Assembly: GCA_000092065.1 (NCBI GenBank)
Contig: CP000595.1
Length of the DNA: 64,000 bases
Origin: Ostreococcus lucimarinus
Lineage: Eukaryota
Reading direction: 5' to 3' (one strand)
The notes under the pieces were generated by a model, which did no database searches, was not told the origin of the DNA, and saw only the letters and a list, made by a program, of their open reading frames with translations. Below, in pieces: positions 14,962 through 43,258 of this stretch; within the stretch, counting starts at the first letter, position 1, and each line of letters opens with the position of its first letter. Position numbers and translations under genes: made by a program.

Positions 14962-17802
14962 TTATACGGGCGTACCGCCCCGATCTCGATCTCGATCTCG
15001 ATCTCGATCTCGATCTCGATCCGCGGACTCGCGCGTGAAGCCGTCTCGACCGTTCTCGTTTGGGCAATACTTTGCCACGCCGTCGTCCGAGATGGGCACG
15101 ACAGATTGTTCGCCGGCGTCGTAACTGATCGACGGCGACCACACGAGCTGGATGGTTTCGCCGACGTTCTCGAAGGAGTGAATCCAACCGCACGGCATGA
15201 ATAAAATGTCGCCCGCCTCGACGACGGCGCCGAAGCCGCGCGAACGCGCGATTTTGGGTTGTTTGTCCAAGTCGACGTTGAAGGCGTTCCCCAGATAGAC
15301 GGGATTGTACAACTCTTCACCGCCGACGCGCGCGGAGAGCGGGTAGAGGTTTTCCTCATCGGCGCGATCCCAGACGACGGCGCGTTTCGAGCCTTGAACC
15401 ACTAAAACCATCACGTGAGCCGGTTTGGCGTGATGATGCGCGTGATACGCTCGAACGCCATCGCCACTGGCGAAGAGCATAAACTTTTTGAACTCCGTAG
15501 GTCGCTCGCGAAAGAGTATCTTGGAGATATACGACCAGTCTCCGCGCAATTTCGTTTCGACAGCTGCTTTGACGCGTTCGGCGAGTGCCGGACATTGTTC
15601 AATAATGTGCCACGAGTGTACGCTCGGTGGCCATAAATTATCCGCTGGGTGTAAAAAGTCCACGCCGCGTTTTCTGGCTATTTTGGATTCCCCCATCAAC
15701 TCACTATCGAAAAAATCTCTCAGTGTTTTAATCTTTCCTTTGCCTTCGAGAAAATCCAACGTTTCATTCAGCGTCAAACCTCGTGTCGTTTCGAGACGTT
15801 CGGAAAGATCTCGCAAAAGTTTTTGATGCGTCGTTTTCGTCATAGACTGGAACAATGGCACTATTTTCGACCCCAAGTCGGCGAATGCATCGCCGCATAA
15901 ATCTAAAATGAGCTCTCGCGTCACGACGCTTCGTAGCACAGTTGCAAGGTTAGCGTTTTCGATCACCACTGGTTGCCCTTCCTTGACGTATTTCCGCTCG
16001 AACGCGTCAATTGATAGTGTAGATGCGTCAACGCGCTCGATGTTGTTCCACTGAAAACTCGGATCGCTCGACGACAGCAGCAGCGGTATATCATCATGTT
16101 GCGGCGCCTCGACCGTCGGCGCGCGTTTGTTTCGTTGATGATCCTCAACTCTTTCGCCACGACCGAGGTTGGCTTGATCATCTTGAATTCGAACTAAAGA
16201 CTCTAGGAAAGACGTAACACTTTGGGCATCGTTCGGTCCGATGAAACTCTGTGCGATCGCATTCAACTCCTTATGATTTCGCACATACGGCCCAAAGTGT
16301 GACGTTTTCATCTCGCGTCTGGCTTTTAGTGACTCTTCCACGGGCCACGGACAATTTAATGGATCGCAACACGGCGCATTAATGTCATACTGACTTTCTG
16401 CTTGAAGCAAAGTAGTCTTAAGCGCACCCTCAAAGCCGTAACGATTCAATAAAGTCGCGCGATCTTTCAGAAAGGCGACATCTTCTTCGGCGATGCTGTA
16501 CTTTTCCATCAACTCCTCTATTGTTGCGTCAGTGACTTCCGCCAAAAACGCGCTAAACGTGGAAGGAAACGTGCGGTGAATGGCACCCCCCTCCACCCAA
16601 CATCTGTAATCTAAGATAGCTCCGATAGTCGGTGACCAGTTTCCGTTTTCAAGCTCCACGATGCACGCCGGTTTAGTTTCGTTGGCAGACTTTGCGTGGC
16701 ACCTTTCCATCCACGGCAAAGTTTTTTCTTTCTCATAGATCACATAACCTGCAACATAGTGCCAGTGATGGCGCGTCCCGGGAATGCTCACTGTGCTGGT
16801 TTCGTCCTCACGTTTCAACATGTCCTCGTTGTCTATCAGCATCAACGACCCTTTGGCTTCGTCGATGAAGATGTTGAATATATTTCTGTCGTGGTTACCA
16901 AGGAGGAAGTCCATCAGAGTCATCCCTATGACGTCCTCTCGCTTAAGTCGCGATACAACGAGAAAAAGTTCTTTCGTCATCATGTTCTGGCCTGGTCTGG
17001 CACCATTGATATCAGTTGGCGCGATTCCCTTTGCCCAGTCTGTGACGAGAACGTGAGTGTTTTGCTTTCCACCAAGAGAACGTGTGTCGCGTGGCGTGAA
17101 AAACTTCAAAGTCTTTGCCTCCGTAGGCGACACAAGTCGCCCGAACCCCATTGTTTCGATCAATCGATGGATGGCTGATATCCTTTCCGGGGATCGATCA
17201 CGCTGACTGTGGAAACCGCCACACGTTTCGTCAACCGGCGTCGCGTTTGCGTGTTGACGAAATTGTCCACGAATACCGCACCAAGCCTTGACGCTCACCT
17301 TTTTCCCTTCGCTCGTAACTCCTCGCAACACCATTGCCTCAGATTTGCCGACATACCTCCCTGGATTTCCCGCGTCGATGCGCTCAACTTTGACGTCGCA
17401 GTCGCAGCGCTCGCACCACCCACGCGAGTCGACGACGTCGTCTTCGCCCAGCTCGGAATGAGGCACGCATGTGGAGCAAGACGAACACGTCTCAAAGCTC
17501 GCGCGTGTACGCTTGTGATTTGTGTCTGCCCCGCGTTCATCGTCACTATCTTTCCGCACGTCGGCGTCGGCGTAATCAGCGTCAGCGACACCATCGGCGA
17601 GTTTCAGCGCTCTAACAGCAATCGTCTCGCGACGCGGCGACGTCCTCGTGAGTGCGACGGTGAGCACGCACACGAACGCGATAGAATAACACGGTGGTTT
17701 CCACCGCGCGGGCCTTCGACGCCTCTTCGTGGCGTGATGCCACATCGGAGGCGCGGAGTGACGTCGGGACGGCGACAAGCGAGAAGGCGTCGTAGAACGC
17801 AT
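14962..17802 (-). CDS. Type-II membrane protein with a FAM20/Four-jointed-like secretory-pathway kinase domain fused to a C-terminal JmjC (cupin) domain and an (RD)n tail
   Basis: N-terminal signal anchor PCYSIAFVCVLTVALT. Fam20-like catalytic motifs: MDFLLGNHDRN (compare FDFLIGNMDRHH) and LMLIDNEDM (DN metal motif). JmjC signatures: HAKPAHVMVLVVQGSKRAVVW and GDILFMPCGWIHSFENV. The track start 17844 is TTG; ATGs are at 17802 and 17745. Confidence 0.55.
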   Translation of the reverse strand: MRSTTPSRLSPSRRHSAPPMWHHATKRRRRPARWKPPCYSIAFVCVLTVALTRTSPRRETIAVRALKLADGVADADYADADVRKDSDDERGADTNHKRTRASFETCSSCSTCVPHSELGEDDVVDSRGWCERCDCDVKVERIDAGNPGRYVGKSEAMVLRGVTSEGKKVSVKAWCGIRGQFRQHANATPVDETCGGFHSQRDRSPERISAIHRLIETMGFGRLVSPTEAKTLKFFTPRDTRSLGGKQNTHVLVTDWAKGIAPTDINGARPGQNMMTKELFLVVSRLKREDVIGMTLMDFLLGNHDRNIFNIFIDEAKGSLMLIDNEDMLKREDETSTVSIPGTRHHWHYVAGYVIYEKEKTLPWMERCHAKSANETKPACIVELENGNWSPTIGAILDYRCWVEGGAIHRTFPSTFSAFLAEVTDATIEELMEKYSIAEEDVAFLKDRATLLNRYGFEGALKTTLLQAESQYDINAPCCDPLNCPWPVEESLKARREMKTSHFGPYVRNHKELNAIAQSFIGPNDAQSVTSFLESLVRIQDDQANLGRGERVEDHQRNKRAPTVEAPQHDDIPLLLSSSDPSFQWNNIERVDASTLSIDAFERKYVKEGQPVVIENANLATVLRSVVTRELILDLCGDAFADLGSKIVPLFQSMTKTTHQKLLRDLSERLETTRGLTLNETLDFLEGKGKIKTLRDFFDSELMGESKIARKRGVDFLHPADNLWPPSVHSWHIIEQCPALAERVKAAVETKLRGDWSYISKILFRERPTEFKKFMLFASGDGVRAYHAHHHAKPAHVMVLVVQGSKRAVVWDRADEENLYPLSARVGGEELYNPVYLGNAFNVDLDKQPKIARSRGFGAVVEAGDILFMPCGWIHSFENVGETIQLVWSPSISYDAGEQSVVPISDDGVAKYCPNENGRDGFTRESADRDRDRDRDRDRDRGGTPV
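14981..15022. repeat. (CGATCT)7 microsatellite encoding the C-terminal RDRDRDRDRDRDR tail of the kinase/JmjC protein
   Basis: cgatctcgatctcgatctcgatctcgatctcgatctcgat. Confidence 0.9.
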
Positions 17803-17879
17803 GGGAACTAAAGCGACGCGTGCGTAACGAATGCGCTGCTTCAATCACGATAAGTCTATCTATTGATTATTGCTTAATA

Positions 17880-20800
17880 CTATTTTGGGGATTCCCGCGA
17901 GTTCGTGGAGTGCGCGGTGAGATGGCGCTCGTCCAAGGCGATTAAACGTTCGCCGCGTCGGTGTGTTCGAGCTTTCCAGCGCTCACGTAAATCTTGCAAC
18001 TGTGAGCTCAAAGCGCCGTGTTGCTGGCGAATAGTAATCGTAGAGTCAGCCTTGATCGTTTCAAGTAAATCGTCGTCGGCGAAAGGAAGACGTTGACCAG
18101 TCATGCTTCGAAGTTGGATGCGTTCGCTTTCCTTTGCCATTTTCTCTTGATGAATGATCTCTTCGTCTCTCTTGGCGTCGAATTCGTCGACAATCGCCTC
18201 TTCAAATTCCAAGTCGCGAATAGCGCGCTTGATGAGGCCTTCTTCGCCCTCTTCGCGGAACTGGCGAACCAACGTTCGGGCAAAATCATACCATGCCCAT
18301 GCGTGCAGGATGAACAACAAGGCCGTGATGAGATCGACAAAAGTCGAGCCTTGTCCACCTTGTTCGCCTGATTGTTTGAAAATCAGTCCGCCGGTGAATG
18401 TTGCCATAGTAGCAAGTAAGCCATGTGTCTCGATCTTTGCGTACTTTTCGCCGGCATACGGTTTTGCGACGATGTGGAATACAAAGAAAAGTTGCAACAT
18501 ACAATTCACCGTGTATCCACCAATGACTGCACTTCGTCTAGATACGATCACTATGAAGATCAGGATGAATTTTCTCGCGAATATGACCCATTCCCACCAC
18601 CACGCGGACTTGACATTGATTCCCTTGAAGAGCAAACCGAGACGATATTGCACCATTGCTGAATCGTGCTCGCCGACAATGTCTTCTCCGCGAGCGAGCT
18701 GCAGCAAACCGTATGGAATACCGACGATATACAGTATAGCCCAAACGATGACCATAAACAAGTAAAGTGAGTAGGCGGTGCCCCGGCATTGGACCGAATA
18801 GTCGGATACAAAGTGTCGATCGCTGTCGCCAGACGTACCAGTGCACTGCGTGAACTCAGCCAAATATTGAACAAGGGTGGGATAGAGAAGCCACAGAGTC
18901 GCGACGAGCCATGATATTACTATGTCGTAAGCTCTGATGTTTCGCACTTCTTCAAGACCGACATCGTGCTTGTTCACTTTATTCGTGTTACCACTATCGA
19001 TGGCGTTTGTTTCTTCATCTTCAGCAGAATCATTTGCCTTTGTCTTCTTCGTGGCTTCCACTCTAGCTTGGGCCGTTGCCTCTCTCAACTCTTCGACGTA
19101 CTTGATAACCGTGAAGATGATGAACAAGAATATCATCAAGCCTAGTGGGAGCAACTCGTGAAACAGTAGATTTCCGTAAAACTTCCAGCCAATGGCGCAC
19201 TTTGCTGACGCCGACCGTATGTCAGGTAACGAAAGCTTCTCGGCGATAAGTAAGAATGCTTTCATCGAATCCGGCCATGCGAGGTCTAAATTTTTCGCCA
19301 ACGCTGTCATTTGTAAATAGGTGACAAACGATTTTATCATGCCGACGACTTGTGAACTTCGGCGTTGATTGACAACCCGAATGAGCCACACCAGCAACAA
19401 TATCCAGAGAAAGTTGACGACGACGATCGGAAAGTTGAGCACTCGATATGCTCCTGCCGAACAATCGTAACATTTTGGTGGATATGCTTCTCGAATGGCG
19501 TGGTACGCATAACCATTCGCACAAGCTGCGCACATAGCACCAGTGTACCCTGCATCAAGACATGTGCTGTTTACGCCGCCTAGGCACGCGTCAGGGTACG
19601 GACACGCGCGAAATTTCAGCGTTTGTCGGTCAAATCTACTGAAACCAGGAAGCGCTTCGACATTTTCGAGCTCATCACCGTAACATTTTGCACCTTTCGG
19701 GCATGCCATACATTTGTAATCATCGAGTGGGAGTTGTCGATAATAGCTCTCGAATGGGACACTCGTTTGAGAGATGCAGTGGCAGGAACTCTTGCTCACG
19801 TGACCAAGGGCGCCTAAAAGTTGCACTCCTGACTGTGCTTGATATGTTTGCCTCAATCTGCCGTCAACTCGCGAAGTATCCATGGAGATTGGGCACGACG
19901 TGCATGCTCCGTCACCGTGCGCCACTTTGTAGAAGCCATTCTTGCACGGCACACACATGCCATACGGGTGAAGAGCATCGAGCCATCGAGATGACCCAGA
20001 TGTAGCTGTCTTATATAGAGTTATATTCGTTTCGACATAAATGGTATCGATATCTTCAGTATATCCCGTGCCTCCACTAATGTCGGCGGTGAAGCCAGGA
20101 ATGCACTCGCACACGCCAGAGCGAAGCACGCTGTTCGGTTTGACTGTTGAGCAATTCATGACCGTCGTTGGAGTTGAAGGTACGATACTCACATTCAACG
20201 TTGAAGCCGAAAAATTCAGCTCATAGGCATTCGCGCGCTCACCGATGATTGTGATTGAATCGAATTTCGCCAAGCCGTTCACCATCGCCGCCTCTGTCCC
20301 TGAAATGCTCGCCACAGCGGGCGATACACTGACCGTAAGCGTCGTATTGATATCGACGCACACGTTTCCTACAGAATCGATCGCCGCGATGACTGGTGCA
20401 GGCGAAAGTGCGAAGTCATTTTCGTTTATGAAGGGAGGTGCCGTGACGACGGCCAACGCTGTCGGCGCGCCAGGGACTACGGTGAACTCCAACATGTCAG
20501 TCTCCAGCACAGGATAGAGCGCACCAGGACATCGACTTGAGCCACATGATGAAGCGAATCGCAAGCGATAGGTCCCAGCTAATGCATTTTGAATATGCAG
20601 ACCGACATTATAGTGTGTGTCGGGCGCAATACCACTATACCCAGCCTCCCTGCAATATGATGGTGCGGGGTTGGTGTACACCACTCTGTACGTGTAAGCA
20701 CCAGTCGTGGGATTACTGGAGACCACAGTCCTCGGGCTAGAGTCAAGTGAATCTTTGCACCATCCCACTCCACCATTTACTGCGAGAAGAGATCCATCCC

Positions 20801-23800
20801 ATTCGGCTTGCAAGGTTGGTAGCACACTTGCCCGTGGTTGATCCTCCGCTGGCACGAAAGAAAATAGCTCAACCGTGATGTTACGCGCTTCGGTGTCCCA
20901 CATCGAGCCCACATGATAACCGCCAGGATCAGTCATTTGCACGACAAAGTCACGAAGATCCAGGGTTTGCGCTGCGATATATTGTGCAGGATCCCGACAC
21001 AAACCTCGGTCGACACGTGTGAACGAGTTACCGGTGCACGTGTCAAGCGCCGCTGGGTACCCAGCGCTGTAAGTCAGTTGTGTGGAGACCGAATCGAGAC
21101 CCGCTGTAGAAAACGTCAATGAGTACGTTCCGGTGCACGGTCGATAGAATACGATATCATCAAACACCGCTGTGCCCGCAACGATAGTCTGAGGTGTGTA
21201 TGATACATTCGTCTCAAAGTTGCAAGCGCTCACGACCACGCGCTCCGCCTTTACAGAAACTTCGTAATTTAGGTTGAGCGCATTCAAGCCTGCATCGACC
21301 ACACGAATCTGAATCATACTCAATTTTACTTTTTTTGCCGTGGAATACGCAGTCTGCAACGCGATTGCTGCACCGCTGGCAGGTGACGTGAAAGTCTGAA
21401 CAATTAATCCACCATTAATATTTTGCATGAAAAAGAAAAAATAAGTAAGCCTTACCGGTGAGATGAAAAGCGCACTTGCAGTGCCAATCGTAATCGTAAA
21501 TGTACGAGTCGCGGGCGCAACGCTGAGCCCTAACGCGGTACAATTGTCGCAGTTGAAAGAAATCACATAATCCCCGATCTGTAATTAATTGTGTGTGAGG
21601 ATGAAAGTTCTAATGAAATCTGTCATCAATGGGAGCGTACCTCTGGGGCATTGATCACTGTGTCACGAAGTAGTGTACTGTCGGTTCCCGCCGCTATGAC
21701 GCCATTTCTCCCGCTCGTCGCAAACGTATGCCTACATTTTGAATAAAATTAATTAATTCCGGTTATGAATTAATTAGAATCGAAACGTACCTTTGACCCA
21801 CGATACTGGCGATAATACTGTACTCGTGAGTGTTAAGCGACCCGAAACGATTACCTGCGTCATCTGCGATCGCAATTTCGAAAGGGCCGAGGGTTGTTGA
21901 TGCCGTCGCCGGGTATGATCCTTGTGGTGAATTTGCCACGACCAGTTTAGCTGGATCTCCTAACGCCACTGTTACCGCATAAGTCGCAACGGCCTTGCCG
22001 TTGAGATAAAATACGATATCGTGCTGCTGCGCAGTCGGCGCGAGCAGCACGAGGTTCTTAAACTCAACGACGCCGGGTGTGCCGCCCTGTGTATTTAAAT
22101 AAGTTAATTAATTGTTCTCCGTGAAATAAATAATTCATCGCGTTCGAGCATAGTTGACTCACCTGAGTTGCACACGTCGTAGTGCTACCACACGATATCG
22201 CAAAAGTTTCCCCTCCTATCAAGGGATTAATTCCCTGTGGATAAGCCGCCAATTCGGCGGTTTGGCAGACAACAAATATTTGTGCCCCGGTCGGCGAAGC
22301 CGAAATAAAATTCCCTCCGCCATCGTAAAGTCGCCCAACTAGAGGACTAGAAGCGTTCGCAATCGATGTTTCTAGCTTAGATTTGAATGTTCCACTACCT
22401 TGTGTTTCGTCGAGGATCAATTGTGCCGCATTTCCCAAAGTCACGGAAAAGTAGTACTGTGCACCCAGCAGACCCGGCGAGTGGATGTCGACGGCGTACG
22501 TACCGATGTACGGCTTGGCGATGTGTAGTCCATCAAAATAGCTTCCACCAGACTCAGTGTTGGCTTCAAAAGTCGCCACTGATGTACATGATACTCCATG
22601 CAGTGTCGACGATGTACTGGCAAGCCCAGCACATTCGCATGCGTTGCCTTCACCAGTTCTTCTGCACAAGGTGACATTTTGCGGCGATAAGTGCACACGT
22701 CTGCTAGGACATGTCTCGCAAGCTTTCGTTTCAAGATCATCGACGGGATTGAAAGCTCCGTCGAGAATAGTCACCACGACTGGGTACATTGCAACGTCCG
22801 ACGCGGCGCGATATTGATGACAAGTGCAGTTGACATTAGTTTGGCACGCTCCGTCGACTGTGGCGCAGTACGGCAGTAAGCCGAGGTGATTGGATCGCCC
22901 TGCCGTGATCTCTAAATCCACGCTTGCAGACCTCAAACTCGAATCGGACGACACGAAAGTCAAATTGTACGTTCCTTTCTGCGGCTTGACGAGATGCAAA
23001 CCTGAGAACGTCGCAGTCCCAGCGCTCGAAGTGGTTTCCACAAGAGAGCCGGTCCTCGGGTACAGTGAAGTATCTGTGTATACAGTAAGTACCGACGTTC
23101 TTGCGATTGTTGTCGCATTTGCACCGAGTATGAACGGATGAATTTCGACGTTTGTGTCATTCATCATCGCCGTCAACGTAACTCCGTTCGGCAAAGTCCC
23201 CGTCGGCGACTCATTTCCCGCCCCATCCACCGGTACGACGACGAAGTCATCCAGAGGCACAGAGTGCCCGGCTGAGTATGCTGTTGCCTCGGATAGTTGG
23301 ATGCTTTCAGTGAATGATGGTGAAAATTCTAAGACTTTGGGGCTGGTGACCTTGAATCCGCTCACGGCTCCAATCAAAACGCTCACCGTGAGAACTGTAC
23401 TTTGTAGCTTTCCCACGCGCAACTCGCCACTCACTTCAGCGCCAGTCTCAATGACATTAAGGGTGTGCGTACCGACTTTCGGTGAATTTGCAATCAAACC
23501 CGTGAAAGAAACTTGACCGTTGCCATTCGTGAACATCGCAGTCGTTCCAGAAAGTTTCAAAGTTTCGCAAGTCACTTGAATGGTACGATTTGGCGCTACT
23601 GCATCCGTGGTTGAGTGACGATCCGCGGTTCCCATTGAATTGCCGAGCATATCTTGAACGTATACCGTGAACGAACCCAATCCTACAGATTGATCAGCTG
23701 TTACCGATGATAATATCGATTGACTCGAAGCTAGTTCATATCCAGCATCTCCAGCTAGCACATTCACCACTTGGAGAACGGGTGTTAAATCGCCAGACGA

Positions 23801-26800
23801 GAATGTCAATCCGAACTCCCCGACGACAGGTCCGACTACTTTGAGATCAGAAAATCGCCATACACCGCTGTCGTCTCGTTTTACTTGCAAAGTACCATCC
23901 AAAGTGATACCAGCCGATGCATGTACGGTCACAGTACGCGGCGTAATTTCCGCCGCACCGACAAAGTTATTCCCCCCGTCGTATGCGCCAATGATAATTT
24001 CACCTACGGATTGCTTGGGTGCCTCGGCGTAAACTGTTCTCTTACTATACGTCCCATTTATACGAAGGTAAGACGGTTCGCCGATCTCCATTTGCATAAT
24101 TGAATGCGCGCGATATCGAACTCCATTCAACGTCGTCGTAAACTGAACAATGTACTTTGAAGCCTCGCCAAAGTCTCCTCGTGTGGCATCGCTATACGTG
24201 ATATCGTCCGTGGATCCTACAGCTCGTGAACCAGAAGGTGGCATAGCGACAAGTCTGAGATCTGAAAATGATACTCGACCATCATTAGTCGTCTTGTTCA
24301 GCGTTCCAGTGAGCTGGGCTCCGATACTTCTCTCTCTGTAGTCTTCGTTGCTGTTGAGTGTACCCGTCACGAGTGACGCTTGTACGGTGACGTCATCAAG
24401 AGATAGCGTCTGAAGCATACTTCCACCGATGTCAACGATGTCGACTGTCAAATGTCCGATCGATACGTTTCGGGCCGCGTCGAGCACGACGACATCTGTT
24501 GGAAATAACGTAGCACTTGATATCATAGAATTCTCCGTCGCCGCGCCGGGTGTCACCTTCAAACCACCGCTCGAACCTGGTGTTACGGATAAATAGGCGT
24601 GTGCAAGTACACCAAGGTCATCACTACATGCACCATCATCATTGGTACAATCGGTTGCGGTAAAAGTGATCACGTATTCCCCAGCGGTTGGTATCGAGGA
24701 TAGCTGTGGAGTGAATGTTGCGATGCCGTCCGAAGTCTGCACTGATGACGTTGCCTCGGTGATAGCGACCTCTGACGGCCCAGAAATACTCGCCGAAATT
24801 GTGTAACCTTTCGTACCTCCTTGACCACGGTCATAGTTGATTTCAGTTCCATCGATATCCACAAGTCCAACCTTGAACGTTCCAAGTGAGAAATCTGTCG
24901 CGGCAACTCGAGCTTGATGCGAATCCGGTCCACTCAAGAGCTTAACTCCAACTGGTGGTCCATGAAGCTTCAAAATCCCTCCACTAACGTAATCAATACC
25001 GTTCAGTGCAACTGCGACCTGCGCATCTTGCGGTTGTCCGTTCGTAAGCCATGGAAGCGGACTCCCAACTGGATTGGCGCACCTTCCATTGACTACATTG
25101 CACACAGGACACTTGATTTCTGACGAACTAACGAACACCGCACTGGTCACACTCGTCGTGTTATCGTTGAACTTACATTTTAAATCGGGCGAATTCAGAA
25201 ACGGACCTCCGAGTATGCGAAGCAGTACTGGCGCGAGATCGGCATCCTCGCCTGTGAGAAGAACCTTGGCGTCATCTGAACCAATCTTTGTACTAATTAT
25301 GACGGCTGGATCGTGATAACGTAGATATATCTGACCAGAGTTCCACAGCGAGTTGGTCCAAATGCTTGTTGGATCGCTCGAATCGGTTGGTAATCCATCG
25401 AACGATATTTGGACTTCGCTATAACCTATAGTGGAGGAGTTTGAATTTGACGCCGACGGTGCCATGCATGAGAGCTCTGTCGCCGAAACATAAGTTGCTG
25501 GCGACCAAGATGTCTTCGAAAACCCATTATTAGCGTCATAAGTGTGTCCAAACCTACATGAAATCGAATGACTCATTCCACTGGCAAGGGTAGGCGAATA
25601 AAAGCCAGATCCATGAATTTTTATCGGCGTTCCAGACGTGAGCGCGCTGATGTGAGTCGGCTCGATCCCCGAAACGATCACCGTGGAGTACTTTGTGTAC
25701 GTCGTACTCGCCGCAGAACTCACCGCGAACACGCTGCGCTCGCCCGGTACGGCGCTGATGCCACCGATGGTGTGGCTTTCTTCAAATGTCCCCACACGCT
25801 TGAAACAACCGCTTATACAAGCACTAGACGTGTCCGTACCCCCTATTTCGATCTTGACGATCCGACTCTTACCGCTTTCACGCGATCCCACGGCCCAGTA
25901 CATGAAATCTTTTTCTCCTGCCGTCGCTCCGGTTTGAACGGTAGCGCTCAGAGCATCACGCTCTCCGAGCGCTGCGTCAAGAGCAATCACGGCGAGTGGA
26001 CTATCGCCTTCAGCAAAATTCAAGTCAAACATGAAGATGCATGCCGCGCGATTTTTACACCCCGGACAGTCGCCGTCTCGACCTGAAGTGCCCACGTATC
26101 CATAGCCGTTGTGCTTTGTGATCGCAGTAAACGTCGAAAAGCGTCCTTGCTTTGAATCGAGCTGCCCTTCGCACGCCTCGAGCACCTTGACGTTTGTTGA
26201 GTCCAAATACATTTCAACCCCATCGCCGTCACGAGTCCCTGAGTTTGTATTCACCTTGAACAAAGTAGGATAAAAGGTTTTGCCATCGGAGTCATCCAAG
26301 AGGGCAGATCCAGCGAAGATGACATAGTTGACACCTGTTTGAGTATGCGCCACACTCGTCTCCAACCTCATGGCGTCCGGGGCAAGCGAACATGTGGGGC
26401 ATTTAGTGCTCAGTAAACCCGGAGCTAAGAAGTTTATTCCTTTATCGTTCAAACTGCCGTCGACGTGACCAATGACGCTTCGCGACAGACCGTCTTCGTG
26501 CGTGGCCTTGTACACTATCATGCCGTTGGCTGGGTCTGTGCCCATGGCATCCAAAATGTACTGCTCTTTTGAGAAAGTCGCACTCGCCTGACCATTTGTC
26601 AATGAACTGAGAACGCAGTTCGCCCACTGCGATGAATCTGATGAGCATGTAGTACCGACATACTTGAAAAGCGAAAATCTAAACTGATTTGCCGTGGTCT
26701 GATGCCACATGTTCACTGGCACGACGACGCCCGTCAGCGCTGTCGACAAATCGGCAGCCATTTTAGCGTACACTCCGTACCAACCGCGCGACTTCTGAGG

Positions 26801-27379
26801 ATCCACATGTCCATATGCTCTCGGATGCTTCGCTGCGCACCCGCTCGAGATCCCAATACCGCAAAAATTTGGCAAAGGTGTTATCGACAATGGCACCGCG
26901 CCCGTTGTCTCTCGTCTCGGTCCGTTCGTTTGTCCCCAACCTCTCGCCGTCACTGCGTTTGAGGTAAAAGTCTCCGGATACCTCGGATCGACTTCGATCA
27001 CTCGCGTTCCATTAGCATCTTGCGCGTAGACGTAAATTACGTTCTTTCGCGTGTCTACCATGACGTCTTCGACGTACTTTTCGTCGTACGCCGTCCCGGC
27101 GGTGTCGTACTCGTACCCCGCCGTCCCATCCAAGCGCGACTCTTTCACCACCGATGGCGTGGGAACATCGCACGCAAGTCCTGCCCATCCTGCCTCGCAC
27201 GCGCACACGCCGTCTAAGCCGCATCGCCCCTGTCCAGCGCTCGCCGAGCACCCGCGCTCGCAACGATTGAACGTCAAGCCTTGACATGAGTGCGCCAACG
27301 ACGCGATGACGACGACGAGCGCGACGGTGACGAGCGCTCTGAACCCTCGGCGCGAGCTTGTACGACCGTTACCACCCAT
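17880..27379 (-). CDS. Giant (about 3080 aa) receptor-like membrane protein, 5 exons: complement join(22163..27379, 21791..22086, 21641..21731, 21456..21578, 17880..21395)
   Basis: A signal peptide is followed by an EGF-like module and a long extracellular region of beta-sandwich (IPT/TIG-like) repeats. Next come GCC2/GCC3- or ephrin-receptor-like Cys modules (CVPCKNGFYKV..CTSCP), then 7-8 TM helices and a cytoplasmic coiled coil. ATG at 27379 (MGGNGRTSSRRGFRALVTVALVVVIASLAHSCQG). The three track ORFs 22064-27634, 21763-22050 and 17880-21566 are joined in frame. The four introns are 76, 59, 62 and 60 nt with GT..AG ends; the track ORFs read through them (for example VRLTYFFFFMQNINGGLIVQ is intron 4 translated). 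Confidence 0.6.
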
Positions 27380-27920: not shown

Positions 27921-28835
27921 TCACGCCTCAAGTGACGCTTGAGAGAGGTTTCTATACATTTCCAGAGATTTAACGGGATGGTACAGCGCGTCGCGGCGAA
28001 TCGGCGCAAGTCTGGGTACCGCGTCAAAGTCAAAGGCCGGACGCCAGCGCATGTAAGCTACGTCGGGACCCAAATCACGGAACGAGAATGTGTCGGAATT
28101 CACCGTGAGGAAAGTTGGTAGGAATGCCTCGTGATGTCCGCTGCTTCTGGTAGAAGTGGAGAGGTGCGCCACCGCGGCGGCGGCAAAGTTTCGCGAGATC
28201 CGAAACGCGGGCAACAAGGCACTTTGCTTGCACCAATTCGGAAGGCCTCGACAGTACGTGCAAGATGGCCAGTGATTCCATGCCGTCTTGTTTGAGTACC
28301 GAAATGTTGTGTTGAAAGCGATGAGATCACTCGAATCTGATTCGTATTTCTCAAAAAGCGTTTGCCACGAGCCGGTGAAAACCACGTCGGGCTCGATGAT
28401 CCAGCCGAAGTCGATCCACGCTTGATCTGGCTGCGTGAGCCATCTCAAGGCTCTTGGCTTCACTGAAGCACCGTATATTCCTGAGAACAACTCGAACGAA
28501 TGACTTCCGTAACGCAATCGTTCCACCTCCCGAGAGGCTTGCACGACTGTCGCGTCGTCGGCAGTTGACGTGTTGAACCAAGGGCGAAACTTGCCTTCAT
28601 AAACCAACACTTGGGCAGAGATTCGTGCAGAGCGAGTGTTCGAGAAAACCGTGTCGCGAGCGAGGCGGTGCAGATCGTCTAGTTTCCTGTCGTTACCAAC
28701 CGTCAGAATTACGACTGTGTGTACGCTACTTTTTGTTTCTGGAAGGGGGTAGAGAAAGGCGAAGAGAAACGAACCACACACGAGCACAAGGAGCAGCCAA
28801 CGCTTAGTCAGTTCACGAGCCCGGCGCTTGCGCAT
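27921..28835 (-). CDS. Type-II membrane (signal-anchor) protein, putative Golgi glycosyltransferase-like, family unknown
   Basis: N-terminal anchor WLLLVLVCGSFLFAFLY followed by a roughly 270-aa lumenal globular domain. ATG at 28835. No confident motif was found. Confidence 0.4.
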   Translation of the reverse strand: MRKRRARELTKRWLLLVLVCGSFLFAFLYPLPETKSSVHTVVILTVGNDRKLDDLHRLARDTVFSNTRSARISAQVLVYEGKFRPWFNTSTADDATVVQASREVERLRYGSHSFELFSGIYGASVKPRALRWLTQPDQAWIDFGWIIEPDVVFTGSWQTLFEKYESDSSDLIAFNTTFRYSNKTAWNHWPSCTYCRGLPNWCKQSALLPAFRISRNFAAAAVAHLSTSTRSSGHHEAFLPTFLTVNSDTFSFRDLGPDVAYMRWRPAFDFDAVPRLAPIRRDALYHPVKSLEMYRNLSQASLEA

Positions 28836-37365: not shown

Positions 37366-37996
37366 ATGGCGACTCGACGCGCGCTCCGACCGCTCATGGA
37401 CCGCGTGCTGGTGGAGCGCATCGCGCCCGCGACGAAATCCGTGGGGGGGGTGCTGCTGCCGGAGAGCATGACGGGGAACACGGTGCGTCGACGACGAGGA
37501 CGAAGGCTCGCGAAGGATGGTCGGCGGCGACGCATGCGCGCACGCATGAATGAATGAATGAATGAATGAATGAATGCGCGCGCGCGCGCGGACATCGACG
37601 ACGGTGGCGGACGAAAAAACAAAGGATGAAAGACTGACGCGGAGAATCGCGCGATGACGACGCGGACGCAGATGAACGAGGCGAAAGTGATCGCCGCGGG
37701 ACCGGGACGAAGAACGATGAGCGGCGAGCTCGTGCCGTTGGGTGCGAGACGCGACGCGCGCGCGCGATGAAACGCGAAACGGACGCGAAACGGGACGAAC
37801 AGACGACGGTGACGACGATGACGACGACGATGACTGACGAAGGAATCGATGACGGTTCGGACGAGGCGCAGAGATTAAGGTCGGGGACGTCGTCGCGCTT
37901 CCGGAATTCGGCGGCGCCGCGGTGAACGCGGGCGACGGCTCGGGGAAGGAGTACTTTATCTATCGCGAAGAAGAGATCGTGGGCGTCGTGGAGTGA
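37366..37996 (+). CDS. HSP10: Chaperonin 10 (GroES/HSP10), 3 exons: join(37366..37482, 37672..37741, 37872..37996), 103 aa
   Basis: Exon 1 is MATRRALRPLMDRVLVERIAPATKSVGGVLLPESMTGNT. Exon 2 is MNEAKVIAAGPGRRTMSGELVPL(E). Exon 3 is IKVGDVVALPEFGGAAVNAGDGSGKEYFIYREEEIVGVVE*. These match Cpn10 consensus (L.PL.DRVLV.R...E..T.GG..LP; AVGPGRR; VKVGD.V.....G.E; EY.I..E.DI..V.E). Donors are gtgcgt and gtgcga; acceptors are acgcag and gcgcag. Exon frames were checked against the antisense track ORF 37394-38074. Confidence 0.7.
37546..37576. repeat. (TGAA)/(AATG) x8 microsatellite inside Cpn10 intron 1
   Basis: atgaatgaatgaatgaatgaatgaatgaatg. Confidence 0.9.
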
Positions 37997-38323: not shown

Positions 38324-41300
38324 ATGACGCGCGAGGAGCGAGGATCGTCGGCGAAGAAGAAGCGTCGAACGTCAACGTCGAGCGCGAAGGGCGAGAGCGG
38401 GGCGACGCTCGACGGACAACGCGAGGCGCGCGCGCTCGGGCCGTGGTCGACGACGGCGCGCGCGCGAGAGGAACGCGCGCGCGCGCGCGCGCACGCGAGC
38501 GCGAGCGCGAGTGGGAAACGAACGAGGGAGGAGGAGGAAAAGGGATCGTTTCGTGGATTATTCGTGGATTGTCGGACGGTGGACGATGACGCGGCGTTCG
38601 AGGCGTGGGAACGGGAGATGCGGGCGGTGGGCGAGGCGCTGCGCGAGTGCCCGTGTACCGAGAAAGACTGGGAGAGCGTGGGGGCGATGGAGAGTGCGCA
38701 AGGCGAAGGCGAAAGTGATGCGTGGGAAAGCGAGAAGATTTGGCTTCATAAGATGTCACGCATCGCGTTCTACGACTCGCAACCGCTGAGCGAGACGAAC
38801 GCGTGGCCGTTCGCTTCGAGAACGAAGAAGGACGCTACAAAGTCGACGGTGGCGCTCTTCAAGGCGAGCGTCTCGGCTTTCATCGCAGCGAAAAATACGC
38901 AGCGACTTGCGGAAGTGGACTGGAAATTACAAGAAAATAAATTAATCAACAGTTGGAAAGAATTGCTTATGACCCACACGCCTCGTCCGGGAGGCTTGGC
39001 AGACGTGTCGTGCGAGTTCAACGTGCACGTCACAGCGCTCGAGCAAGAGTTGGCGAAGAGACAAAATGAAGGTGATAAATCGGATGAATTTGGACGGCGC
39101 ATCAAACACATCAAAATCATGATACAGGTGTTGCAAAGCATAAAGGCGAGCTTCCAGTACTGCGCCACGGCGCTTTATGACACCGTGTTCGCGCCTCTGA
39201 GAGCTTTTTCTTCGGCGTCCATTACGAGTGAAAATTTCGAATCCGGCGTGGAGTTCGTCTCATGGGCCAGTCGCTCGGTGATGATCGCATCCGAACTGTG
39301 CCAAACGAAAGATTCATATCACGTTCGAATGACGCGATACACCAAACACGAGTTTTTGAATTGGTCACGAAAACTTTTGGACTTCTTCTACCACCACCTA
39401 TCGTCCGTGAGAGGTTCGCACATTGTCGAAACACTCGGGTCAGGTAGTGATTGTGCAGAATTAATGCAGCTCATCAAGTGCTTACCCACCATGCGTCTGA
39501 CGCTACCGTGCAAAGGGACTAGCCGGCGTGCCACCTATCTTTCGGACACAAGATTTTCGGACAAATTTCAACGAAAGCTGACACGATTCGCTCTCACGGT
39601 GATCGGTGCTGCAAAGTCTCAACTTTCGCAGCACACACAAACGCACAAATTAGGCAAATTTCTGTTCCCGGAGTGGATCGAGCATCTCGTCGATACCATC
39701 GAGCACAATAAGAGTTACACAGTGAAAGAGCTAGCCCGGGAGATTCTTCTCTCGTTGGATATTGCCAACTTGCTCGCAACTCGTGTAGAAGTGCTCAGCG
39801 TAAAATCTCTCATAAAATTGTCTGACGATGAATTGTCTGTCGACGACGAATTGTCTGTCGACTACGATGACGACGTAAAAGAGCTCAAAGAGTTGTTATC
39901 ATGGCTTCGCTCAATATTAAGCGTGCATCCATCCAAGTTGAGGAACGTGGCTGACTTGGCGAAGGACTTGATTTCCGTCTTTGGATTCTGTCGCCTCCGA
40001 CGCGAAACACATGGTGACAAAGTTCAAAAAAGTGGGCATGATCATAGTTTAGAGTCGGACATATGCAGTATCTTTGCGTGCCTCGCCGTCAGTCGCGATC
40101 ACGACCTTGACGATGAAGAGAAGCTCAAATCTTGTCCGTGTGAGATGGTCAAGTTGAGATCTGAAGACGCGAGAAAAATGATTCAGCAATTGGTGATGCA
40201 TGAAGATCATCTCGACGATGTCGAGGCGGTGATTTTGAATATGCTAACGCTGGATCGAACGAGCATGTCAGCGAGCGATACAACCATCCCTTCCGCTTTG
40301 GCCGCGCTGACTATGTTGGTCCGAAAAAATTGTGTCCTCAGGGAGCGATTTTTCAAATCGGGCGACACCACCAACACGTTGTTGGAGATTCTTGAGTGCA
40401 AGAATGCGAACGTAGCGCGCATCACCAGCGCTTGCATTCTGTCATTCGAAGAGCATCATCGGCTCGTGACTAGTTTGTACAAACCGAACGTGATCACCGA
40501 TAAAAAAGGCGAGCAAGTGACTGAAATATCTGGTTGGGACGTTGACACGATTCGTCAGTCGCTCAGAGCCATCTCTGCGCTCGTCAAAGACTCTACCGTG
40601 TCTTCAATCGGTTTCGATAGCGCCATTTTGGAAGTCATCTGCACTGATAGGCGAATGCTTGTTCTTACGAACAAGATCAAGGCGACGATAGAAAAGAAGA
40701 TTAACAAGAGTATGGATTATCCCAACTCCCGGCTCTGCTTCCCAGAAGCTCTGCTTGAAGAATGGGTGTTCGATCTACTCTGCATGAGAAGCGATCTTCT
40801 CACTCAAATGGCCACTGCGGTCACAAACGGCGGCGGTGACCCGTGGAAAAACTTCAAGCCTAAACATGAAGAGTTCGCGAGTTTCATCAGTCGTGAGTTT
40901 GAAGTCGCGAACACCGACGCGACGATACCACCGGAGGCGCACGCAGAATGGTTTCAAGAGGTCGTGACATTGGTGACAACTGTGCAAGAAAAACTCAAGA
41001 AAGACGAGGAAATCTCCGACGTCTGCAGTATTTTGATGGATGGAGACACCGATGGTCCATCTTCCCGTGTTGGTATCGTAGTCCCCATCTTAACTCTGTT
41101 ACACAAATGTCGCATCTTGCAGGAGCACAATTTGATTTCCGAGCTAGAAGTCGAGGGCATCAGCGATATTGAAAAAGAAGCGTGTTACGTCATCGGCTTA
41201 TTAGCGAGTAAGCAAGGAATTCAAGATCGTATCGCAAGCTCTTTCCTTATCGAAGGCAAGAACGGAATCGAGCAATTAATTCCGCTCTTGCAACGATACC

Positions 41301-43258
41301 AACCCAGTGCGAAAAACGCCGCGAATGCCAGTGTTGCGAGACGCGCATCGGATGCAATCACAAACTTAGCACACGAGAACAGTCGCATTAAAACGATGGT
41401 TCGAAATGCGAATGGCATCCCTCCTCTGGTCAATCTATTGGAATCGCAAGAGAAAAAAGTCCAGAAGGCTGCCGCTAGTGCGCTCAGAACTCTGGCTTTC
41501 AAAAATGGTGAAAATAAAAACCAAATTGTCGAGTGTGGCGCACTTCCGAAGCTCATTTTCATGGCTCGTTCAGAGGACGTAATGATTCACAAAGAAGCAA
41601 TTGGTGTGATTGGAAACTTGGTTCACTCTTCGCCGCACATCAAACGACGCGCCCTCGACGAAGGAGCGCTGCAACCCGTGATTGAATTGCTCAAGTCTCA
41701 GTGTTCCGAAACGCAGCGTGAGGCGGCGTTATTGCTTGGTCAGTTTGCCGCGCGCCTTGAGCCTGCAGCGCCGGGTGATCCAGACTATCGGACAAAAATA
41801 GTCCAGCGTGGAGCTGTAGAGCCGTTGATTAAAATGCTCGGCGGTCAATTTGTCTATCGTGAACCTGGTCTTCGAGAGATGGCAGCCTTTGCCCTCGGTC
41901 GACTTGCGCAACACGGGGATAATCAAGTCGGAATCTGCCATTCGGATGGATTACGGCCGTTGTTGACGTTACTCGAATCAGAGATAGAAGATATCGCCGA
42001 AGGACTTCGTCATCATAGCGCTTCCGGGAAGTCTGATCACGAGATCGATCTAGACGCCAAGCGCTTTGCTGAAAATTTGCAGCACAACGCTGCGTTTGCA
42101 CTCTATGGCCTAGCCGCGCATCAAGACAACGTGCCAAAGATGCTCAAAGAGAACGCCTTCATGCGGTTGAAATTTTCTCATCTCATCGCCGAACAGAGCA
42201 AACAATGTGTGAATAAAACGTTAAAGCGGCTCGAGGACGGAGTCAGCCGCAGAGATGTCTTGACTTATCTCGGTTTCGTCATAAGCACTGGCAAGCCAGT
42301 CGAACGTCAAAGAGTAACGCTCGCTCTGGCTTGGCTAATCAGGAAAGAAAACCAAGACTATCTGAAAGACATGCGCGCGGTTTTCATAGACAAAGGTGGT
42401 CTTGACGTCCTTTCTGGCGCTTTACTTGATACGCCGGCGGAGCCCATAGACTTTTCTGGGCATACGAGTGGTCTCGCCGGTGGCAAACGCATTGTAAACG
42501 TGATAATGGAGGCTCTGAGAGAGATTAAGGACAAGCTGGTGTCACAGGTTGTGGTGGAATCTCACATGATGCCGCCACCCTCGACGCCAACGGCCGAGGA
42601 GCATATGCCAGCGAACTTCAATGACCCCGAGCTTTCAGACGTGACGTTTATTGCTCGGGATGATGAAGGTGAAAAGCGAGAGTTCAATGCGCATAGAATC
42701 GCTTTTACGCACGCCTCTGATGCGTTCTTATCAACGCTCGAAGCGGGTAAAGCTGATGTCGACGTTTATCCCGCCACATACAAGGTTGACCTCGAAGACG
42801 TTTGTTGGAACGTGCTTGAGGCGATGATGGATTTCATTTACACGGGCACTGTCGGACCGATGTCCAGCCTCCGAGACCAGGCGTTTCTCCAGCATAGATG
42901 CGAGGACGTACTCTCCGCCACGACACGCTTCGACCTTCCCGGGCTCAAGTATTTGACCGAAAAACTTTTCATCGATAACGTGAAAATGGATACTTTCACA
43001 TTCGCGAGAACGTGTGCATTGTATCGCGCCGCCGTGGAGCACGACGCCGTGGCGATCCAGGACCACGTGCTGGGCTATGTTCTCGACAACTACGACAAAC
43101 CTTGGATTGACGACGATGTCACGATGAATTGTCTCACTTCATACAAAGCGCGCGTGAAAGACATCGTCGAATGCTTCGGGAAAGGCTTGGTGAAATACCT
43201 TGACAAACTGTTGCGCCGAGAGCGCGTCGCCGTCGTCGCGGACGCGCAAGACGAATGA
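38324..43258 (+). CDS. Large Armadillo-repeat plus BTB/POZ protein (ARIA/ABAP1-like architecture) with a long N-terminal helical region
   Basis: ARM repeats, for example ITNLAHENSRIKTMVRNANGIPPLVNLLES, AAASALRTLAFKNGENKNQIVECGALPKLIFMARSED and IGVIGNLVHSSPHIKRRALDEGALQPVIELL. A C-terminal BTB is present: ELSDVTFIARDDEGEKREFNAHRIAFTHASDAFLSTLEAG...DVCWNVLEAMMDFIYTG. ATG at 38324. The gene is AT-richer than its neighbours. Confidence 0.65.
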   Translation: MTREERGSSAKKKRRTSTSSAKGESGATLDGQREARALGPWSTTARAREERARARAHASASASGKRTREEEEKGSFRGLFVDCRTVDDDAAFEAWEREMRAVGEALRECPCTEKDWESVGAMESAQGEGESDAWESEKIWLHKMSRIAFYDSQPLSETNAWPFASRTKKDATKSTVALFKASVSAFIAAKNTQRLAEVDWKLQENKLINSWKELLMTHTPRPGGLADVSCEFNVHVTALEQELAKRQNEGDKSDEFGRRIKHIKIMIQVLQSIKASFQYCATALYDTVFAPLRAFSSASITSENFESGVEFVSWASRSVMIASELCQTKDSYHVRMTRYTKHEFLNWSRKLLDFFYHHLSSVRGSHIVETLGSGSDCAELMQLIKCLPTMRLTLPCKGTSRRATYLSDTRFSDKFQRKLTRFALTVIGAAKSQLSQHTQTHKLGKFLFPEWIEHLVDTIEHNKSYTVKELAREILLSLDIANLLATRVEVLSVKSLIKLSDDELSVDDELSVDYDDDVKELKELLSWLRSILSVHPSKLRNVADLAKDLISVFGFCRLRRETHGDKVQKSGHDHSLESDICSIFACLAVSRDHDLDDEEKLKSCPCEMVKLRSEDARKMIQQLVMHEDHLDDVEAVILNMLTLDRTSMSASDTTIPSALAALTMLVRKNCVLRERFFKSGDTTNTLLEILECKNANVARITSACILSFEEHHRLVTSLYKPNVITDKKGEQVTEISGWDVDTIRQSLRAISALVKDSTVSSIGFDSAILEVICTDRRMLVLTNKIKATIEKKINKSMDYPNSRLCFPEALLEEWVFDLLCMRSDLLTQMATAVTNGGGDPWKNFKPKHEEFASFISREFEVANTDATIPPEAHAEWFQEVVTLVTTVQEKLKKDEEISDVCSILMDGDTDGPSSRVGIVVPILTLLHKCRILQEHNLISELEVEGISDIEKEACYVIGLLASKQGIQDRIASSFLIEGKNGIEQLIPLLQRYQPSAKNAANASVARRASDAITNLAHENSRIKTMVRNANGIPPLVNLLESQEKKVQKAAASALRTLAFKNGENKNQIVECGALPKLIFMARSEDVMIHKEAIGVIGNLVHSSPHIKRRALDEGALQPVIELLKSQCSETQREAALLLGQFAARLEPAAPGDPDYRTKIVQRGAVEPLIKMLGGQFVYREPGLREMAAFALGRLAQHGDNQVGICHSDGLRPLLTLLESEIEDIAEGLRHHSASGKSDHEIDLDAKRFAENLQHNAAFALYGLAAHQDNVPKMLKENAFMRLKFSHLIAEQSKQCVNKTLKRLEDGVSRRDVLTYLGFVISTGKPVERQRVTLALAWLIRKENQDYLKDMRAVFIDKGGLDVLSGALLDTPAEPIDFSGHTSGLAGGKRIVNVIMEALREIKDKLVSQVVVESHMMPPPSTPTAEEHMPANFNDPELSDVTFIARDDEGEKREFNAHRIAFTHASDAFLSTLEAGKADVDVYPATYKVDLEDVCWNVLEAMMDFIYTGTVGPMSSLRDQAFLQHRCEDVLSATTRFDLPGLKYLTEKLFIDNVKMDTFTFARTCALYRAAVEHDAVAIQDHVLGYVLDNYDKPWIDDDVTMNCLTSYKARVKDIVECFGKGLVKYLDKLLRRERVAVVADAQDE

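Follow-up and report, generated by a model that had tools for sequence, protein, structure and literature searches.

An AATT-repeat element conserved near the 3' ends of four short AT-rich introns in a giant gene of Ostreococcus

The stretch of DNA analyzed in this report (the window) consists of 64 kb from the mamiellophyte Ostreococcus lucimarinus, and coordinates are given as positions in this window. It carries a giant low-GC gene that is interrupted by four short AT-rich introns, and near the 3' end of each intron lies a copy, exact or degenerate, of the short sequence AATTAATT. We compared this gene with its counterparts in six syntenic loci (L005 to L010) from Ostreococcus-like lineages, of which L007 is O. 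tauri. The seven sequences total 197,827 nt, and their 28 introns (four in each of seven lineages) account for 1,772 nt, or 0.9%. The position and conservation of the AATTAATT-based element in these introns suggest that it may act as a signal in splicing, and this hypothesis is evaluated here together with its alternatives.

The giant gene and its four short introns

The giant gene spans approximately 9.5 kb, and its introns are packed tightly in the middle of the gene, in a genome that is intron-poor. The gene, its introns and internal exons, and the motifs within the introns are as follows.

17880..27379, minus strand: giant gene; five exons, 3080 amino acids, GC content approximately 0.51, GC content at third codon positions (GC3) approximately 0.52
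22087..22162, minus strand: intron 1; 76 nt, GC 0.32, phase 0, donor GTGAGT, acceptor CAG
22106-22113, minus strand: AATTAATT of intron 1, continuing into TTAAC; AATTATTTATTT lies upstream at 22124-22135
21791..22086, minus strand: exon 2; 296 nt, with the same length in all seven lineages
21732..21790, minus strand: intron 2; 59 nt, GC 0.24, phase 2, donor GTACGT, acceptor TAG
21747-21758, minus strand: AATTAATTAATT of intron 2; a second AATTAATT lies at 21768-21775
21641..21731, minus strand: exon 3; 91 nt (94 nt in two lineages)
21579..21640, minus strand: intron 3; 62 nt, GC 0.37, phase 0, donor GTACGC, acceptor CAG
21583-21590, minus strand: AATTAATT of intron 3, 4 nt short of the intron end, with a CCTCAC branch-like site upstream
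21456..21578, minus strand: exon 4; 123 nt (114 nt in one lineage)
21396..21455, minus strand: intron 4; 60 nt, GC 0.27, phase 0, donor GTAAGG, acceptor CAG
21402-21409, minus strand: degenerate motif of intron 4, GATTAATT

When the four introns are removed, three long open reading frames (ORFs) and two small exons fuse into an uninterrupted ORF of 3080 codons that extends from an ATG at 27379 to a TAG at 17880. An initial annotation of the window had described introns of 59-76 nt that are approximately 70% AT, and this description holds: the lengths are 76, 59, 62 and 60 nt, and the GC content is 0.24-0.37, compared with approximately 0.5 in the exons. In the orthologous set, lengths range from 50 to 76 nt and GC content is below 0.43 in 26 of 28 introns, the remaining two having 0.43 and 0.50.

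All four introns are found at identical codon positions in each of the seven lineages, and the protein sequence is conserved, in frame, across the junctions. Intron lengths vary between lineages by amounts that are not multiples of three; for example, intron 4 measures 60, 54, 64, 50, 61, 58 and 56 nt. Because positions, exon lengths and translation are preserved while intron lengths differ in this manner, comparative evidence indicates that all four are genuine introns of the spliceosomal GT-AG kind. For O. lucimarinus intron 4, a coding interpretation was also considered, given that its 60 nt are in frame and free of stops, and its retention would add 20 residues without truncating the protein. 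This candidate was rejected, because the orthologues are 50-64 nt long and differ by non-multiples of three.

The four introns of the window have GT-AG boundaries, as does nearly all of the orthologous set, in which 27 of 28 introns begin with GT, one begins with GC and all 28 end with AG. Two introns have non-consensus boundaries of a kind reported for a minority of introns on the big outlier chromosome (BOC1; chromosome 2 in Ostreococcus): intron 2 of L006 (15594-15650) has the GC donor GCAAGT, and intron 4 of O. tauri (15871-15920) ends in AAG. The donors of the four introns fit GTRMGN, and ACTGAC is present in none of the O. lucimarinus copies. Features of U12-type introns were not found, in that the donors fit GTRMGN rather than RTATCCTT and TCCTTAAC is absent, the nearest sequence being the TTAAC of intron 1 only. 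A search for further short AT-rich introns yielded no convincing candidates in the window or in the six orthologous loci. Within the window, the small introns are therefore confined to one low-GC gene, as had been proposed.

The protein encoded by the giant gene has only weak Pfam matches, to Ephrin_rec_like and DUF7630, and its orthologues have weak precomputed matches to the Pfam family TIG. Read by eye, its sequence appears to begin with a signal peptide and an N-terminus resembling EGF, and to include a hydrophobic region of multi-pass appearance and a charged C-terminal tail. Overall it looks like a cysteine-rich surface protein with Ig repeats and a multi-pass C-terminal region. Protein searches with the spliced product recovered relatives restricted to Ostreococcus-like lineages; the matches are metagenomic ORFs, called in prokaryote style, that correspond to exon 1 or exon 5, with 58-63% identity. 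Word-seeded protein searches found no orthologues in Micromonas or Bathycoccus. Neither the spliced 3080-residue product nor the equivalent 3075-residue product of O. tauri is present in a collection of 15 billion proteins, in which the gene appears only as prokaryote-style ORF fragments running into intron 1. Public databases probably lack a model of this gene or splice it differently.

Conservation and anatomy of the AATT-repeat element

The sequence AATTAATT is a perfect palindrome, that is, its own reverse complement. It occurs six times in the window, compared with 0.40 expected occurrences, and none of 100 dinucleotide shuffles had more than two. Introns 1 to 3 contain five of the six sites. 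The initial annotation had noted a motif near the 3' AG of each intron, and the sequences and distances it gave were accurate, with intron 4 contributing the degenerate form GATTAATT. In the introns of the window, the 3' end of the motif is 4-19 nt from the intron end, and extra upstream copies are located at 36-37 nt.

This enrichment is seen again in the orthologous set. Of the 28 introns, 22 contain exact copies of AATTAATT; the copies number 37, where base composition predicts 0.3. When the interiors of the introns were shuffled (2000 trials), the mean number of introns containing the motif was 0.38 and the maximum was three. Relaxed forms of the core are found in 26-27 of the introns (ATTAAT or TTAATT in 26). 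Moreover, 37 of the 39 AATTAATT sites in the entire 198 kb fall within these introns. A literature search for AATTAATT produced a single match, to an irrelevant Hi-C ligation-site string.

The divergence of the lineages makes this conservation informative. At four-fold degenerate sites in approximately 2.3 kb of flanking coding sequence, identity between lineages averages 31.6%, which is near random, and amino acid identity is approximately 55%. In each intron, the alignment columns that stay conserved belong to the donor, to the AATTAATT block and to the acceptor; a further conserved block, GAATTATTTATTT, is found in intron 1. Because synonymous sites are saturated and the motif block has nonetheless been kept, these alignments indicate that the motif is maintained by selection. 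In this respect the initial annotation understated the motif, whose conservation over seven lineages argues that it is not a chance product of AT-rich sequence.

The saturation of neutral sites also bears on the idea that the motif is a relic without present function, left by an introner-like mobile element or as the footprint of a transposon with TTAA targets, or consisting of a slippage-prone (AATT)n microsatellite. Such an origin would fit the common motif, the similar sizes (50-76 nt) and the tight clustering of the introns, and Micromonas is known to have a family of 67-nt AT-rich introners, IE-C. The number of repeats also varies, from (AATT)2 to (AATT)5 between lineages. However, an unselected 8-mer would not be expected to persist in 22 of 28 introns when neutral sites are saturated. 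The four introns also have nothing in common outside the motif, and no further copies were seen in 198 kb. We consider a functionless relic very unlikely, and a mobile or repetitive origin would in any case be compatible with a present function. Expansions to (AATT)4-5 were observed in L010 (6171-6190 and 6513-6528) and in L008 (10066-10081). The element is partly like a tetranucleotide microsatellite, though it is conserved as a whole.

Alignment of the introns on their last AATTA gives the consensus AATTAATTAWTT. The distance from the start of this AATTA to the intron end has a median of 13 nt and ranges from 8 to 46 nt, and the motif is typically followed by 0-10 mostly pyrimidine bases and then by YAG, as in aattaattatttcag. 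The extension of the motif is strand-specific: AATTATTT is found 16 times and its reverse complement three times, and the corresponding numbers for AATTAATTAT are 10 and three. The element thus combines a palindromic core with a T-rich extension on the sense strand, as is expected of an RNA signal.

The orientation and placement of the element are pertinent to a different proposal, in which it acts as DNA. Sites with a TAAT core suggest a homeobox reading. The five to eight palindromic sites within 770 bp might bind a homeodomain (WOX-type) or AT-hook protein or might exclude nucleosomes, and they might form an intragenic regulatory or boundary element, with the introns persisting as its housing. 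A perfect palindrome containing TAAT/ATTA in a homotypic cluster would suit this proposal, as would the tight grouping of four introns in the middle of a 9.5-kb gene of an intron-poor genome. Against it, each intron has its own element across lineages and invariably on the side of the 3' splice site, the extended motif shows asymmetry relative to transcription, and no copies were found in promoters or intergenic regions in 198 kb. A function at the level of DNA is, in our judgment, decidedly unlikely.

A third proposal concerns translation of retained introns. The (AATT)n repeat, or TTAATTAA, provides TAA in several frames and could serve as a three-frame stop cassette that directs transcripts with retained introns to nonsense-mediated mRNA decay (NMD); a proposal that tiny introns carry stops and expose retained introns to NMD was reportedly made by Jaillon in 2008. 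If retained, 23 of the 28 introns present an in-frame stop; for 10 introns, translation would first meet a TAA that lies within the motif. However, an earlier, unrelated stop precedes the motif in 13 introns, and five introns have no in-frame stop, including intron 4 of O. lucimarinus, whose length is a multiple of three. A single stop does not require a conserved 8- to 12-mer at a fixed intron end, and the frame of the motif is unrelated to exon phase in these introns. The data are weakly compatible with a stop cassette, which we regard as highly improbable.

The relation of the motif to the branch site differs among the introns. Directly 5' of the motif, at 15-25 nt from the AG, ACTGAC or ACTAAC occurs in two copies of intron 3 (L005 and L009) and in four of intron 4 (L006 to L009). 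In intron 1, the motif continues into a branch-like TTAAC or TTGAC. It is conceivable that the motif is itself the branch site, with UUAAU/UUAAC fitting a loose YURAY and replacing the canonical GACUGACG. For introns 1 and 2 this is plausible: in most lineages they lack any other CTRAY-like site, and in intron 1 AATTAATT is fused to TTAAC (O. lucimarinus and L005) or TTGAC (L007 and L009), approximately 18-22 nt from the AG. By contrast, introns 3 and 4 in several lineages have the canonical ACTGAC/ACTAAC just upstream at the normal distance of 15-25 nt, and the motif there ends 3-8 nt before the AG, which is too near for a usual branch point. As an account of all four introns, the motif as branch site is unlikely. 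The initial annotation had read the motif as a candidate branch point or 3' element. Its position downstream of ACTGAC/ACTAAC in introns 3 and 4 better supports the second part of that reading, and the first part is uncertain.

RNA secondary structure and membership in a known RNA family were considered and rejected, because Rfam searches gave only a meaningless match (E = 1) and no consistent fold was identified. Only intron 2 of O. lucimarinus (21732-21790, minus strand) folds better than shuffled sequences (z = -2.8). Its two copies of AATTAATT can pair to form a 10-bp A-U hairpin with a minimum free energy of -10.1 kcal/mol. This hairpin is probably incidental, since the upstream copy is missing in most orthologues.

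Comparison with other introns of the window and with published classes

Introns elsewhere in the window provide a comparison. Six GC-rich introns were checked by ORF continuity and by whether the resulting protein made sense (PsbQ, Cpn10, PPAN and S16).

14201-13938, minus strand: PsbQ intron; 264 nt, donor GAG/GTGCGTCG, with AGACTGACTG
13829-13726, minus strand: PsbQ intron; 104 nt, donor GTG/GTGCGTGC, with AGACTGACGA; both PsbQ introns have GC 0.57-0.61
37483-37671, plus strand: Cpn10 intron; 189 nt, donor GTGCGTCG, with AGACTGACGC, acceptor GCAG
37742-37865, plus strand: Cpn10 intron; 124 nt, donor GTGCGAGA, with TGACTGACGA; both Cpn10 introns have GC 0.60-0.62
48128-48236, plus strand: PPAN/Brix intron; 109 nt, GC 0.72, donor AAG/GTGCGGGA, with GGACTGACGA and CGCAG
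43825-43646, minus strand: intron of organellar ribosomal protein S16; 180 nt, GC 0.58, donor GCG/GTACGTCG, with AGACTGACGA

These introns are 104-264 nt long, have 56-72% GC and GTGCGN-type donors, and agree with the canonical Ostreococcus description. Each has a branch site of the CTGAC type at 10-33 nt from the AG; in five of the six it is of the ACTGACG type, and none of the six contains AATTAATT. The earlier statement that GC-rich introns with GTGCGT-type donors and without the motif are found elsewhere in the window is thus correct for the six verified PsbQ, Cpn10, PPAN and S16 introns. The first Cpn10 intron includes an (ATGA)n microsatellite (atgaatgaatga...) at approximately 37545-37580 (plus strand).

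Two other ORFs are relevant to base composition and to the surroundings of the giant gene.

38324-43258, plus strand: Armadillo-repeat/BTB gene; 1644 amino acids in a single uninterrupted ORF, GC 0.50 over 39.0-43.3 kb compared with 0.58 for the window
14962-17844, minus strand: Cupin_8 (JmjC-like) ORF between the giant gene and PsbQ; 960 amino acids, GC 0.53, with a weak PI3_PI4_kinase match

These low-GC Armadillo/BTB and Cupin ORFs are intronless. Because the Armadillo/BTB gene is low in GC and yet intronless, low GC is not by itself enough for short introns here. The Cupin_8 ORF had no tblastn match in the six syntenic loci, in which PsbQ follows approximately 1-1.5 kb after the giant gene; it is probably an insertion specific to O. 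lucimarinus.

The presence of two intron populations in the window, as initially proposed, is confirmed, and the dichotomy, including the donor types, is already published for the O. lucimarinus genome (PMC2483917) and for Mamiellales in general (PMC3491373, PMC3879977). Outside chromosome 2 of O. lucimarinus, introns have a GTGCGTG donor and a CGCAG-like acceptor, with ACTGAC in 87% and GACTGACG in 66.5%, while chromosome 2 introns have weak GTRNGT donors and almost no common branch motif (Irimia & Roy 2008, PMC2483917). The two-class picture was described for Mamiellales, with small introns of 40-65 bp (Moreau 2012, PMC3491373). For BOC1, introns shorter than 75 nt with less than 43% GC and "no discernible branch-point motif" were reported, the canonical donor being AG/GTGCGT, and the drop in GC was proposed to aid recognition of BOC1 introns (Verhelst 2013, PMC3879977).

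A likeness to this atypical class had been suggested, and length, GC content and donors agree with it. Similar to the introns of BOC1 or chromosome 2 (see also Derelle 2006), those of the giant gene are short (50-76 nt, with the 76-nt intron 1 at or just over the limit), AT-rich relative to GC-richer exons, equipped with weak GTRNGT-type donors and without an obligatory ACTGAC. They also occur several per gene at positions kept between species. Unlike BOC1 introns, they are located on a standard chromosome rather than on BOC or the small outlier chromosome (SOC), and they carry a strongly conserved element, whereas the BOC1 class was described as lacking a motif or branch point. With canonical Ostreococcus and Micromonas introns (AG/GTGCGTG, with GACTGACG 20-35 nt from CGCAG) they share GT-AG boundaries, a genome and, here, a window, and some orthologous introns 3 and 4 retain ACTGAC/ACTAAC at the canonical distance. 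The small O. lucimarinus introns differ in lacking the GTGCGTG donor, the ACTGAC branch site, the CGCAG-like acceptor and the GC-richness.

The IE-C introners of Micromonas RCC299 (approximately 67 nt, AT-rich) are also short AT-rich introns with a recognizable common sequence in a GC-rich mamiellophyte genome. However, IE-C copies can be aligned over their full length, carry GTGAGTTTATT and GACTGACGTG, and are polymorphic, recent and spread over many genes. By contrast, the introns of the giant gene have only a block of 8-12 nt in common, and are older than the divergence of the seven lineages; no other copies were seen in the 198 kb.

The chromosomal assignment is based on neighboring sequences. 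A 304-amino-acid ORF next to the giant gene (27921-28835, minus strand) shows complete identity to XP_001421748.1 / ABP00042.1 of O. lucimarinus CCE9901, from a contig of 468,366 bp, and marine metagenome contigs match the window at 99.9% identity. The locus is neither on chromosome 2 (489 genes) nor on the 149-kb chromosome 18, and it is apparently on chromosome 15, as judged by comparing the EukProt index of that neighboring protein (P006391) with per-chromosome gene counts (Lanier 2008, PMC2367439). In O. tauri, the orthologous neighborhood (L007; CAL58169, CAL58164) is on a contig of 528,281 bp, and the PPDK gene of chromosome 2 (ostta02g04360, near the RWP-RK mating-type gene) is on a contig of 1,074,072 bp. 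Because the locus is off chromosome 2 and the small outlier in both species, it is on a standard chromosome, not an outlier (BOC or SOC), in O. lucimarinus and O. tauri.

Some additional observations were made on PPDK. One metagenome contig (L014, Ga0222716_10040522; proteins P0129-P0136) is intron-free and transcript-like, and encodes a PPDK with 73% identity to that of O. tauri. Several related metagenome contigs contain PPDK as one full-length ORF, and the PPDK gene of the outlier chromosome seems to be intronless. A metagenome scan with an approximate maize PPDK sequence detected only bacterial loci and intronless metatranscript contigs, a protein search recovered the O. tauri PPDK together with closely related proteins, and no PPDK match was found in a viral collection.

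A candidate signal for 3' splice-site definition

The explanation we favor, with a probability of roughly 55%, is that the AATTAATT-based element is an AU-rich RNA signal for 3' splice-site definition in these introns. The four introns would belong to the short AT-rich type that is otherwise concentrated in the low-GC part of BOC1, and the (AATT)n-based element with consensus AATTAATTAWTT would be read in pre-mRNA as a 3' recognition signal. It would be the AU-rich equivalent of a polypyrimidine tract, abutting or overlapping the branch site, and could make up for the strong GTGCGTG donor and the GACTGACG branch site of standard introns, both of which these introns lack. A splicing signal is suggested because each intron has one such element, which is placed close to the 3' splice site, runs in the sense direction and adjoins the branch site, and because canonical signals are absent.

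The use of AU-rich sequence in this way would have a parallel in land plants. Goodall and Filipowicz are said to have found, in 1989, that AU/U-rich sequence is needed for splicing of plant introns. Proteins of the UBP1/RBP45 type bind such elements in land plants. Both systems would rely on AU-richness and on the contrast between exon and intron, with an element between branch site and 3' splice site. The plant elements differ in that they are compositional and degenerate, whereas the element of the giant gene is a specific, conserved, palindromic 8-mer.

Several points weigh against an RNA splicing signal. That it acts in RNA, that its role is in splicing and that a factor binds it are points we infer entirely from anatomy and conservation. 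The relation of the motif to the branch site is variable, because it is downstream of ACTGAC in introns 3 and 4 and overlaps TTRAC in intron 1. The core that intron 3 carries is often no more than a degenerate form (TAATTAT). A palindrome and a short tandem repeat that grows to (AATT)5 would also suit explanations at the level of DNA. The element may be peculiar to the giant gene, which would be odd for a general splicing signal, and no conserved motif in BOC1 or chromosome 2 introns was reported in the three studies of these introns (PMC3491373, PMC3879977, PMC2483917). The published searches centered on CTRAY-type branch motifs, and AT-rich words may have been discounted.

Two aspects of these introns are new: BOC1-like introns on a standard chromosome, and a conserved (AATT)n element near the 3' ends of these introns, which departs from how the class has been described in print. 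A broader hypothesis, which we put forward only tentatively, is that (AATT)n/AATTAATTAWTT is an overlooked recognition signal of short AT-rich introns in Mamiellophyceae, read by a dedicated RNA-binding factor. Such a factor might be, for example, U2AF-like or STAR/SF1-like, and might recognize UAAU half-sites beside the branch site.

Ostreococcus is a classic example of two sets of intron signals within a single genome. How the short AT-rich set is recognized has been a question since 2006-2008, for which published analyses found no motif and proposed composition contrast or local spliceosome concentration. The element described here provides a concrete candidate signal that can be mutated in a transformable organism, and its location indicates that the short AT-rich intron type is not strictly bound to the outlier chromosome. 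If the signal is specific to the giant gene, it would still represent unusually clear purifying selection on the sequence of 60-nt introns. If it is a signal of the entire class, a single tiny genome would use two modes of 3' splice-site definition side by side, and the giant gene, whose introns lie outside the chromatin and transcription context of BOC1, would show the purest form of the second.

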